A stretch of DNA of 5,109 nt, from IMG/VR virus record IMGVR_UViG_2695420889_000019; one strand, given 5' to 3'. A model generated the notes under the pieces. The model saw only the letters and a program-made list of their open reading frames with translations, did not search any database and was not told the DNA's origin. The stretch is from a virus. Its lineage: Duplodnaviria > Heunggongvirae > Uroviricota > Caudoviricetes. Positions 2,588-5,109 of the stretch are shown here, in pieces (positions within the stretch are counted from its first letter, which is position 1; each line of letters starts with the position of its first letter). The position numbers and the translations under genes are program-made.

Positions 2588-2605
2588 AAAAAGCACCAGC
2601 TATGA

Positions 2606-2779
2606 TCATGCTGCTTTGCGACGACGAAGCTTACCCTGCTGCTCTTTACCAGAGACAGTAGCGTGAGTGAACGCATTAGGAGCAGCCTTCATCAGAACTT
2701 CAACAGCAGCACCCATACCTGCGAATGCTTTCATTGTGTCGAACTTAACCTGTGGCTTGGTTGCTTTTTGATCTTTCAT
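2606..2779 (-). CDS. Unannotated small protein (57 aa), Lys/Ala-rich with basic C-terminus RRRKAA; unknown function
   Basis: Minus-strand ATG at 2779-2777, preceded by GGGAG (rc of 2787-2791) at 7 nt spacing. Translation by hand: MKDQKATKPQVKFDTMKAFAGMGAAVEVLMKAAPNAFTHATVSGKEQQGKLRRRKAA, stop TGA at 2608-2606, directly followed by the terminator. Absent from the track, presumably under its length cutoff. Confidence 0.5.
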   Translation of the reverse strand: MKDQKATKPQVKFDTMKAFAGMGAAVEVLMKAAPNAFTHATVSGKEQQGKLRRRKAA

Positions 2780-2849
2780 AGAAAACTCCCGAGACAGTAA
2801 AGGCGTCTCTAACCCTCTCTTTAAAGCTAGCTTGTTTCGCTAACTTATG

Positions 2850-2870
2850 CCAATCGATCATGTCGATTGG
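2850..2870. repeat. Inverted repeat CCAATCGA-TCATG-TCGATTGG (8-bp perfect arms, 5-bp spacer) containing a GATC
   Basis: Read directly from the sequence. It sits in the 196-bp spacer between the 178-aa gene and the 57-aa ORF, about 70 bp upstream of the 57-aa start codon. Confidence 0.8.
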
Positions 2871-2975
2871 TGACATCGTTTCTTAGTAGTTTAAGCACAA
2901 AACGACTGCCATAGATGTACCTTTAAGGTAATCTGGACGGGTATCCTACAATTTGTAGACCCTTCTCGTCTATAC

Positions 2976-3512
2976 CTACTGAGCAAATTTAAGAAAGATA
3001 TCCTGCAGCTCATCAATGACTGCAGACATCACATAACCGCACTGTTCCATGCGGAAACCAAAAGACTCGTAATACTGCACCAGTTCTGGTACTGGCTCTA
3101 CAATGTGGACAACTTTACATTCAACAGCTTTACAAAATATAAAAGCACTCATAAGAGTGAGTAAAACCATGCGCCCTTTCAATGGGTGAGATTCATCTTC
3201 TCTAGAAAACCTTTCGATCATATGGATACGAAAGATGTTTTCTTCAACCCCATAAACACAAATTGCTGCTCCTGATGGTATTCCCTGAACCCGACCTTGC
3301 TGAACAAGTTTTATGCAGAACTCATACTTTTCTCTGGAGTTGCCATAGGTGCTTAACGCATAGTCCCATTCAAGCTCACCATAGCCACCACACAGAATCT
3401 TGTAATCATCATCACTGAGCGGACCAACAGCAAGAGGTAAGCCGACATGATCAATAATCAACTGGATATTGTTACGTACAGATTGACCTATCTCGTCTAG
3501 GGTAAGCATCAT
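2976..3512 (-). CDS. Hypothetical protein (178 aa), possible GNAT-like acetyltransferase fold (weak)
   Basis: Long minus-strand ORF in A+T-rich DNA. The C-terminal half (RIHMIERFSREDESHPLKGRMVLLTLMSAFIFCKAVECKVVHIVEPVPELVQYYESFGFR) loosely follows GNAT motif A/B topology, but the canonical R/Q-x-x-G-x-G/A is degenerate. Tandem ATGs at 3512 and 3509; the weak GAGAG RBS fits the second better. Confidence 0.55.
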   Translation of the reverse strand: MMLTLDEIGQSVRNNIQLIIDHVGLPLAVGPLSDDDYKILCGGYGELEWDYALSTYGNSREKYEFCIKLVQQGRVQGIPSGAAICVYGVEENIFRIHMIERFSREDESHPLKGRMVLLTLMSAFIFCKAVECKVVHIVEPVPELVQYYESFGFRMEQCGYVMSAVIDELQDIFLKFAQ

Positions 3513-3541
3513 AGACTCTCAAGCGGAACACTAAAAATCTC

Positions 3542-3547
3542 ATTATA
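3542..3547 (-). promoter_or_regulatory. Candidate sigma70 -10 hexamer (perfect TATAAT on the minus strand) for the 178-aa gene
   Basis: Plus-strand ATTATA at 3542-3547 is TATAAT on the minus strand, about 30 nt upstream of the start codon at 3512. No convincing -35 hexamer at 16-18 bp spacing (closest CCATGC), so this is tentative. Confidence 0.3.
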
Positions 3548-4059
3548 TCTCATTCTGATGCCCGGCATGGATTACACCTTGAAATGAAAACACCGGGTTC
3601 CCAATAGGCTCCCACAAAGTGTATAACTACTTGTTTTTCAAAAACGGTACATCCTATCGAGCATTGGTGCAACGCTAAACCGACCACTCCAGTGAACGTC
3701 AGTTTTTTCAGGCATTGCGCTGGTTTGGTTGATTTTTTGCATTTCAGAATTACCGTGCATTTTCAAATGTAGAGATTATTTTATCGATATATCATTGAGT
3801 TATGTTATTCAGCATCACTGTTCAGGAGGCTCAATAGCGGGGTACTATACCATAACAACAGGAAGCGCCTGTCTCATTGCAAAAGAAAATTGAGATCCTC
3901 TCAAGGCATGAAGTTCTCACGAAGTGATGGAAATAATCTTATTAGCCGTTAGCTTTGTTAAGGCCAATGATAAACAATCTAAGTTCGACGATAAATAAAA
4001 AATCACACATTAAACTCCGGTGATATCTCTCCCTGCTAATAGCATTGATAGAGAAAAAA

Positions 4060-4086
4060 GAACCCAATAAATATTGGGTCCTTTTA
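4060..4086 (-). terminator. Rho-independent terminator downstream of the 328-aa gene (also hairpin-plus-T-run on the plus strand)
   Basis: Stem ACCCAAT (4062-4068), loop AAAT, stem ATTGGGT (4073-4079). On the minus strand it is followed by TTTTTTC (rc of 4053-4059); on the plus strand by CCTTTTAT. About 40 bp past the stop at 4123. Confidence 0.6.
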
Positions 4087-4122
4087 TATAATGCCTTCCA
4101 TACTATCGAAGAACTTCACATA

Positions 4123-5109
4123 TTATTTCTCCGATTTAACCCCGAACAAATCATAAATTAATTTAGAAGTGTCTGTAAGTATTTTAATCTCTTCCTTTGA
4201 GGTTGGGTCAAACGACTTCGCGAAGCTAATTAATTGTGGTGCAGCATCTCGCATTTTGCTTAAAATATCAGGATCGAGCGTTCTTTCATTCACCAGATGT
4301 GACATCTTATCCAGATAGCCATCAAAATTCATTTCTCCCCCATCTGCCAGACGCTTCATCTCTCCCAGGTACTTCTTCATATCACGTTGAGATAATTTTT
4401 CAAACTGAGCTTTCAGGTAGCTCTCATTATTTTCATTAATATACACTGTTTCTGATAAATCTGCGTAGGCACTAGAATATGAAAGTGAAATTAACAGCGA
4501 AGCAAATAATTTTAAGCTGTTGTCATCATGTTCCTGGCAGGCGTTAACAAACGTTAAAAAACCAGAACCTATTGCTTGAAAATGTATATTCGCTAAAGGT
4601 TCATTATCCTTAGATTCCTTATAAAATAGCTGAACCGTGGAGGGAAGGCCATTCTTGGTTTCTACATCAAAAGTATATCGGTCTATGGGAGTCGCATCTT
4701 TAGTATCCTCAGGATTACATATACTATTAATCGCGAAATGAAAAATAGCCCGATCAACAACTGAAGTAATAAAGTCACGATCGTCTAATTCCTCATCAGT
4801 GCAATCGTCAATATACTTATTGACCCACATTTTGAGATCATTTATTTGCTTAATTAACGTCACATTTTTTTCACGTGCAGTCCATAAATTATGAGTGATT
4901 CTTTGAATAAACAAATCTATTTTTGCAATAATTATATCCCGATGACGCAGCGCTGCATAATCAATAGATTTACCATATATACTATTTACTTTACCTTTGA
5001 TTGTACCTCTATTATCTAATTTATCTTTGATTGCATCTTCATTATCGAATTGATTTGAATTGAGTGTTTTATTAAAGTATCCAGTTGCACCGGGTATTAT
5101 CTTCAACAT
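4123..5109 (-). CDS. Hypothetical protein (at least 328 aa), no recognisable family; the N-terminus may extend beyond the window
   Basis: Uninterrupted 987-nt minus-strand ORF in clearly A+T-rich DNA, ended by its own terminator. The first codon sits on the last three window bases, so the true start is uncertain. No catalytic motifs recognised by eye. Confidence 0.6.

Follow-up and report, generated by a model that had tools for sequence, protein, structure and literature searches.

A two-gene moron and an attachment junction in dusA at the end of an mEp460-like prophage, next to a host gene of the DUF2713 family

The window analysed here is the whole 5,109-nucleotide (nt) stretch of IMG/VR virus record IMGVR_UViG_2695420889_000019 (Caudoviricetes), and its right-hand part, 2600–5109, carries three minus-strand genes, for proteins of 328, 178 and 57 amino acids (aa), which an earlier note had taken for a single A+T-rich accessory island. 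Our analysis indicates, with high confidence for the anatomy of all three parts taken jointly, that 2600–5109 is a juxtaposition of a prophage moron, an attachment (att) junction and a host gene, and not one island; as the best explanation overall this account is likely. The moron comprises the gene for the 178-aa protein, which has a predicted GNAT fold, the gene for the 57-aa protein (p57), and a structured RNA between them. The three open reading frames (ORFs) lie where the note had put them, and a terminator-like hairpin is indeed found at their left edge. The features on which the argument turns are as follows.

2562–2587, minus strand: intrinsic terminator of the cassette, with an 11-bp stem, 6 G–C pairs and a minus-strand T-run.
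2606–2779, minus strand: gene for p57, 57 aa, basic with an isoelectric point (pI) of 10.5; PHROG family phrog_2741 (E=8e-36); equal to mEp460 gp24.
2780–2975, minus strand: structured spacer RNA, about 200 nt long, in which five or six hairpins form, from RNAalifold on an alignment.
2956–2972 (H0), 2918–2930 (H1), 2850–2870 (H2), 2825–2845 (H3) and 2791–2809 (H4): the spacer hairpins.
2976–3512, minus strand: gene for the divergent GNAT-fold protein, 178 aa, or 177 aa, as in RefSeq, from the likelier start at 3509; equal to mEp460 gp23; phrog_4350.
3542–3547, minus strand: TATAAT, a hexamer resembling a −10 element, some 30 nt before the GNAT start; putative promoter of the cassette.
3657–3664: att crossover core, TCGAGCAT on the plus strand and ATGCTCGA on the dusA strand; the prophage/chromosome junction.
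3657–3761, minus strand: displaced host dusA 5′ end, 35 codons, with 100% aa identity to K-12 DusA residues 1–35.
3762–4122: host yjbM–dusA intergenic region, the natural upstream region of dusA, collinear with K-12 at 97% identity.
4056–4085: terminator-like hairpin after the DUF2713 gene, from a terminator scan.
4123–5109, minus strand: DUF2713 gene, 328 aa, host chromosomal; Pfam PF10897 (E=5e-157, 521 bits against a cut-off of 27).

The junction was placed by a four-way alignment of the window junction, the attP of phage mEp460, the empty site of E. coli K-12, and the other prophage end in E. coli O145:H28 RM12581, whose chromosome is 100% identical to window 270–5109. The window tracks the phage (mEp460) from 3656 leftwards and the host (K-12) from 3665 rightwards. 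The attR/attP/attB/attL set is complete, with the ATGCTCGA core common to all four sites, and the restored dusA of RM12581 forms the reciprocal junction. That other end of the RM12581 prophage holds DinI, the integrase, full-length dusA and pspG; the tyrosine integrase, which lies outside the window, adjoins the restored dusA in RM12581 and attP in mEp460.

On the left of the core, mEp460 matches window 1652–3763 at 97.5%, with the gene order exonuclease, excisionase, gp24 (57 aa, minus), gp23 (178 aa, minus), a 340-bp gap containing attP, and integrase gp22. On the right, K-12 is collinear with window 3657–5109 at 97% nucleotide identity; its order is zur, yjbL, yjbM, dusA and pspG, with dusA intact and the prophage absent, and the right-hand neighbours in RM12581 are zur, yjbJ, dinF, lexA, dgkA and plsB. 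Judged from these alignments, the DNA left of the core is the last kilobase (2561–3656) of an mEp460-like lambdoid prophage inserted in the 5′ end of dusA.

The fate of dusA itself is consistent with this placement. Between the 178-aa and 328-aa genes, RefSeq annotates a 105-nt ‘tRNA-dihydrouridine synthase’ pseudogene without a C-terminus, which corresponds to the displaced 35 codons. The attP of mEp460 carries its own diverged copy of dusA codons 1–35 (71% aa identity); the full-length dusA of RM12581 has the phage-type 5′ end, and the window keeps the host-type remnant. The phage copy takes over from the host 5′ end at integration, leaving dusA intact, and the phage-borne upstream region would drive the restored gene. 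The reading frame of the remnant continues into phage DNA as far as a stop codon at 3638–3640. The resulting 42-codon hybrid ORF (window 3638–3766, ending in APMLDRMYRF) keeps the dusA start codon and upstream region and may still be expressed as RNA and protein; the cargo follows directly downstream.

The 328-aa gene belongs to the chromosome. It is the intact form of a gene that in K-12, where it belongs to the same family and occupies the same zur–dusA interval, is broken into two, yjbL (84 aa) and yjbM (235 aa); tblastn gives 94% identity with a change of frame at residue 81. Its assignment to DUF2713 overturns the earlier note's view of this protein as belonging to no known family. An AlphaFold2 model from a 22-sequence alignment was poor (mean predicted local distance difference test, pLDDT, 44; predicted template modelling score, pTM, 0.37), and a sequence search of the PDB gave matches at chance level only. 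Among homologous records, identity to the window gene is 90–95% in 1840, 80–90% in 226 and 60–80% in 139, and full-length variants range from 318 to 340 aa. Against typical E. coli core genes as the yardstick, the gene looks unusually divergent for a chromosomal one, and this divergence could stem from diversifying selection or from repeated replacement.

The distribution of the two parts differs accordingly. The host segment (3770–5109, at least 80% coverage) is present in 4037 of 5426 complete E. coli genomes (about 74%), and the phage cargo segment (2600–3656) in 355 of the 5426 (6.5%). In Salmonella prophages that carry this cargo, a TraF_2-family gene takes the DUF2713 position, and no DUF2713 gene stands beside the cargo at the loci examined in other genera. 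The co-occurrence check that had been proposed for the three genes therefore shows that they are not a unit across genomes. That 2600–5109 should nonetheless be one foreign accessory island, with three genes that jointly form an undescribed system of, for example, defence, is very improbable. Its three genes do share a strand, all were put under the phage operon in GC content, and PHROGs lists phage families for all three; the crossover at 3657–3664, however, parts the 328-aa gene from the cargo, prophage-free K-12 has the 328-aa locus beside an intact dusA, and the same cargo occurs in Salmonella and in all other genera examined without the 328-aa gene next to it.

The phage label of the host gene is probably an artefact of prophage calling. 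The ‘phage’ families phrog_29005 and phrog_28007 hold host yjbM and yjbL, and many IMG/VR prophage contigs (L029, L030, L038 and others) start about 1.3 kb upstream of the GNAT gene, within DUF2713. Prophage callers that overshoot the dusA att site probably gave rise to both families, and it is in this way that viral protein families become contaminated with a host gene.

Base composition also departs from the earlier description. The note had seen a change to clearly A+T-rich DNA at the terminator; a drop does occur there, but it is small, from 46.6% GC (1–2599) to 42.5% (2600–3656), and strong A+T richness begins only at about 3760, some 1.1 kb to the right of the terminator and outside the phage, in the host part (35.6% for 3657–5109). 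By gene, the GC content is 47.7% for p57, 41.7% for the 178-aa protein and 34.7% for DUF2713, whose third codon positions have 30%.

We now turn to the phage-borne part. Nucleotide homology between different genomic contexts covers 2561–3519 exactly, from the GNAT start through the terminator. The terminator scores on the minus strand only and moves with the p57 gene; what it closes is the minus-strand cassette, not the phage operon on the plus strand. Its sequence, CCCGCC...GGCGGGTTTTTT, is kept after p57 in Pseudescherichia, Franconibacter, Enterobacter and Salmonella loci with differing neighbours. At the other end, 8 of 10 cassettes taken from different contexts have a TAnAAT hexamer about 30–35 nt before the GNAT start.

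The linkage of the two genes was followed in 105 loci with a GNAT relative, drawn from species-representative genomes, IMG/VR and an assemblies collection and representing at least six genera. In 104 of them p57 lies downstream in the same orientation, and the lone exception, in Brenneria, has a diverged 61-aa p57 that tblastn had overlooked, which brings the count to 105 of 105. Four contexts are distinguished: between the excisionase gene (xis) and attP in dusA lambdoids of E. coli (carriers include O157, O145 and O111 strains) and Salmonella; between the RusA/Q region and holin in prophages of Enterobacter hormaechei and Hafnia; in the middle of a myovirus-type tail operon in Photorhabdus; and at the edge of a tailocin-like element in Pseudescherichia. 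On sequence grounds, the GNAT/p57 insert of about 0.96 kb is a portable moron. The earlier suggestion of a moron placed where a phage operon ends accordingly holds for the 178-aa and 57-aa genes, which are phage-borne, sit in an exchangeable slot and recur together, but not for the 328-aa gene. As a side observation, the Hafnia prophages (L024:4150–5109, L025:4051–5109 and L026:995–1954) carry, about 210 nt upstream of the pair and between the antiterminator and holin, a gene for a toxSAS-like RelA_SpoT-domain protein of 319–352 aa.

What is conserved between the two genes is a series of hairpins, and the length of this region varies across loci from 94 to 203 nt. Over 16 distinct sequences, 91% of the cells in four spacer helices are paired, compared with 22–44% in slid controls, and 22 cells are compensatory, compared with 0–7 in the controls; the structure scored in this way was derived from the very sequences used to score the pairing. 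Helix 3 shows two-sided changes in 4 of its 7 pairs, and the apparent breaks in helix 4 are a one-column misalignment of five sequences. The minimum free energy of the window spacer is −60.3 kcal/mol, compared with −47.1 kcal/mol for shuffled sequences (z=−3.0). An extra hairpin occupies the variable middle of the spacer and has unrelated sequences in different lineages, and hairpin H4 abuts the Shine–Dalgarno sequence of p57. An Rfam search found no family for the spacer and only sub-threshold matches on the terminator, and a by-eye check of the spacer for a sigma-70 promoter of p57 found none that was convincing.

The p57 gene is real. A GGGAG Shine–Dalgarno sequence lies 7 nt upstream, and 48 homologue clusters are found in Enterobacterales, with the core motif F-x-x-M-G-A-A-V-E-V-L-x-K-A-A-P. 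Identity to p57 is 68–100% for the full-length homologues, which range from E. coli to Hafnia, and about 54–58% for the Photorhabdus copies. The ratio of nonsynonymous to synonymous polymorphism (pN/pS) is 0.14–0.26, and p57 is therefore under purifying selection. We considered whether p57 could be a membrane-toxin peptide of the type I toxin–antitoxin kind, which is unlikely for so hydrophilic a protein (grand average of hydropathy −0.55). A 43-aa ORF at 2745–2876 was rejected as a gene: it has no family match and spans the conserved spacer hairpins.

The note's statement that no known family could be assigned stands for p57 and the 178-aa protein in so far as neither matches a Pfam, NCBIfam or PADLOC model; both nevertheless fall in PHROG families (phrog_2741 and phrog_4350), which are of unknown function, and the 178-aa protein has a recognizable fold. 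Searches of PDB sequences with this protein, by single sequence and by profile, gave chance-level matches only. Its AlphaFold2 model, built from 42 sequences, has a pLDDT of 91.1 and a pTM of 0.87, and Foldseek returned 295 PDB matches at E≤1e-3; among the 50 matches listed, all are GNAT acyltransferases, including AtaT, TacT3, KacT, SpeG, RimI/J and Gcn5. The closest structural neighbours are protein N-alpha-acetyltransferases and aminoacyl-tRNA-acetylating toxins; the neighbours also include aminoglycoside acetyltransferases AAC(6′), glyphosate acetyltransferases and an acetyltransferase of streptothricin type (OrfE, 7ypu). At the level of the predicted model the GNAT fold is established.

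The family is small, with 51 clusters at 90% identity, all from Enterobacterales apart from one in Shewanella, and 99 representatives at E≤1e-3 among 1.84 billion. Across 56 diverse members, Trp49 and Tyr148 are invariant and Phe153 nearly so, and the β4 glutamate (Glu100) and an H-P-L-x-G-R motif are kept in most. Tyr148 is the tyrosine of a Y-x-x-F-G-F motif, the usual site of the GNAT general acid. A Pfam scan of 42 family members and 10 remote members gave no acetyltransferase match. The protein is a probable acyl-CoA N-acyltransferase, and its family lies outside the curated libraries.

The range of structural neighbours bears on what such an enzyme might do. SpeG, AAC(6′), OrfE and the glyphosate acetyltransferases would suit an enzyme of lysogenic conversion that detoxifies an antibiotic, a polyamine or an aminoacyl-nucleotide such as processed microcin C, with p57 as an unrelated neighbour. 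Many amine-acetylating GNAT proteins are acidic, like the 178-aa protein, and p57 can occur without this GNAT gene. We nevertheless regard detoxification as decidedly improbable, for no resistance-gene family model matches, and the complete linkage, seen in at least six genera and four contexts and accompanied by a structured spacer conserved along with the genes, argues for a functional unit.

The same slot holds other cargo in sister phages. PhiR40_1 (L109:3668–4658), which has the same backbone, carries a 179-aa protein and a YafO-family toxin (PF13957, E=2e-21) between xis and the att side; the 179-aa protein, of the same length class as the GNAT protein, was compared with it and is unrelated. 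In E. coli MS1679 (L110:4220–5208), a Panacea-domain protein (PF13274, E=2e-18) and a 128-aa protein are followed by p57 and the terminator, the boundaries of the swap falling at about window 3597 and 2792. As an antitoxin domain, Panacea is promiscuous (PMC8832971), and the MS1679 pair is likely to be a new PanAT pair. With YafO in one phage and Panacea in the other, the xis–attP slot hosts toxin–antitoxin modules in sister phages. MS1679 also lacks the yjbL/yjbM gene, and its dusA remnant is diverged.

How the cassette might work can be outlined from its setting. It faces away from the early operon of the phage and lies downstream of the upstream region of host dusA and the 42-codon hybrid ORF, and no terminator is predicted between that upstream region and the cassette. 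In a lysogen, the host dusA promoter, a weak promoter of the cassette itself (3542–3547), or both could drive its transcription, which would not depend on induction of the phage. With an acyl-CoA as donor, the GNAT protein would acylate an amino group; p57 would be an obligate partner of this protein, serving as its antidote, its regulator or its substrate; and the ratio or the timing of p57 translation would be set by the structured spacer. Because sister phages carry toxin–antitoxin modules in the same slot, our guess, a tentative one made by analogy, is that the cassette may be a toxin–antitoxin-like module of conditional growth arrest or phage exclusion that benefits the lysogen. A more ambitious version, which is somewhat unlikely, would make the GNAT protein, the RNA and p57 an undescribed three-part prophage system, a new kind of toxin–antitoxin or phage-exclusion system distinct from the GNAT toxin–antitoxin pairs with a ribbon–helix–helix (RHH) antitoxin and from catalogued defence systems; here the GNAT enzyme would modify p57 or be restrained by it, and the multi-hairpin RNA would control their ratio.

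Several observations weigh against such a module. The architecture is unlike that of every known GNAT toxin–antitoxin system. Compared with the type II GNAT/RHH systems TacAT, AtaRT, KacAT and ItaRT, the cassette has no ORF for an RHH/DUF1778 antitoxin, its small partner lies downstream where theirs lies upstream, and a structured spacer of 94–196 nt stands in place of their tight or overlapping operon. Its predicted structure resembles TacT3, TacT2, AtaT and KacT; however, the protein has only 7–14% identity to their toxins and is acidic (pI 4.8), unlike an expected tRNA-binding toxin. The cassette is not a member of the GNAT–RHH toxin–antitoxin families. In addition, none of the three proteins matched in a search of defence-system models (PADLOC-DB 2.0, 5027 models, E≤1), and NCBIfam likewise returned no match for any of them. 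The partnership is not absolute, since p57 persists in MS1679 without the GNAT gene. As for expression, the promoter scan did not report the 3542–3547 hexamer, which has no recognizable −35 element, and read-through from dusA into the cassette is suggested by geometry only.

To these points must be added the active site. The canonical acetyl-CoA loop, Q/R-x-x-G-x-G/A in motif A (β4–α3), is replaced by a consensus H-P-L-x-G-R-M with a single glycine. This absence, and the failure of Pfam acetyltransferase models to detect any member, would fit a catalytically dead pseudo-enzyme whose only role is to bind or to scaffold p57 or the spacer RNA. The invariance of Tyr148 across the 56 members and the retention of the β4 glutamate and HPLxGR in most of them form, however, the pattern expected of a selected active site, and we give a dead enzyme little probability.

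In the same vein, the cassette shares the orientation of late or tail operons in Enterobacter, Hafnia and Photorhabdus and could therefore act in lytic growth, for example in counter-defence. The GNAT protein would then acetylate, and thereby inactivate, a defence protein of the host or a toxic metabolite, with p57 as co-factor, in counter-defence or host takeover; the model for this is AcrVA5, an acetyltransferase that acts as an anti-CRISPR. The positions between Q/RusA and holin and within a tail operon, the enzyme fold and the conserved tyrosine of catalytic type are all compatible with such a role. The cassette, however, has its own terminator and occupies moron positions, where the usual occupants are genes expressed in the lysogen; in E. 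coli and Salmonella it points away from every phage operon and has a host promoter region upstream; and it has no similarity to those anti-defence protein families that could be tested. A counter-defence role is improbable on this evidence, and a module acting in the lysogen is kept as the tentative reading.

The left-hand part of the window carries these genes of the lambdoid early region.

358–879, plus strand: Ea22-like gene, a lambdoid early gene.
843–1364, plus strand: S-adenosyl-methionine (SAM) methyltransferase-like ORF, a lambdoid early gene.
1357–1668, plus strand: 103-aa ORF with hydrophobic stretches and without a family match.
1668–2240, plus strand: Rv2179c-type 3′–5′ exonuclease, a lambdoid early gene.
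2250–2558, plus strand: PrtN-type excisionase (xis), Pfam PF11112 PyocinActivator (E=4e-23), annotated as excisionase in mEp460.

The excisionase gene is the final gene of the early-left operon of the prophage and forms the left edge of the cargo slot. The start of the methyltransferase-like ORF overlaps the end of the Ea22-like ORF by 37 nt; RefSeq begins the methyltransferase at a later start and leaves the 103-aa ORF unannotated. The window begins within an IS600-like (IS3-family) element (1–284), with the start of orfA near 205 on the minus strand, and this exact IS600/prophage junction is absent from the complete E. coli genomes in the collection. The IS600 copy of RM12581 lies about 350 bp further left, in the opposite orientation, where it interrupts an HD-hydrolase (yfdR-like) gene; the window therefore comes from a strain closely related to RM12581 but distinct from it. 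On the other arm of the same RM12581 prophage (L027:16218–17967) are the type III effector genes nleG7 and a frameshifted espS, in a second cargo region between the tail fibre genes and the DinI/integrase end.

The main value of the analysis is corrective: prophage ends at dusA are easily overshot, and yjbL/yjbM lie inside many IMG/VR prophage calls. The 8-bp junction provides a clean boundary for a prophage type common in enterohaemorrhagic E. coli and Salmonella. What is new is an uncharacterized, well-delimited two-gene moron with a divergent GNAT fold, a linked basic protein and a spacer supported by covariation, widespread in enterobacterial prophages and tailocin-like elements (E. coli, Salmonella, Enterobacter, Hafnia and Photorhabdus). 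Literature searches on yjbL/yjbM/DUF2713, mEp460, the RefSeq protein accessions and GNAT proteins in prophage defence turned up no study that characterizes these genes. Because the slot otherwise holds toxin–antitoxin modules, the cassette is a cheap and well-defined candidate for laboratory study.

Among known systems, TopAI–YjhQ of the K-12 KpLE2 prophage (a small toxin with a GNAT antitoxin) is likewise prophage-borne and couples a small protein to a GNAT protein of about 180 aa. Homology was rejected: hhalign gives a probability of 0.9% for the GNAT family against YjhQ, BLASTP gives no alignment of p57 with TopAI, and the gene order is opposite. Relative to the protein N-alpha-acetyltransferases RimI, Ard1/Naa10, Naa20, Naa40 and Naa50, identity is 9–16% and no common sequence motif was detected.

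Like the phage morons, a concept that reportedly goes back to Juhala and Hendrix, the cassette is self-contained, has its own terminator, is variably present among collinear phages and sits at classic sites (xis–attP, Q–holin and tail operon) with a GC content below that of its neighbours. It differs from them in that its own promoter is putative and its two genes are separated by a long structured RNA.

The prophage as a whole compares with the dusA-specific integrative elements, which insert at the 5′ end of the gene, supply a new 5′ end and leave the original one as their outer boundary, with the DAI integrase beside dusA, and for which a 21-bp att logo has been published (Farrugia et al. 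2015, NAR, PMC4482086). The 5′-end insertion, the replacement 5′ end and the old 5′ end at the boundary are all found here, and there is no essential difference from those elements (PMC4482086); the present case is lambdoid (mEp460-like), with the crossover narrowed to 8 bp. In sum, the junction is of a known type (Farrugia 2015, PMC4482086), and the cassette fits the moron concept and holds no surprise in kind.

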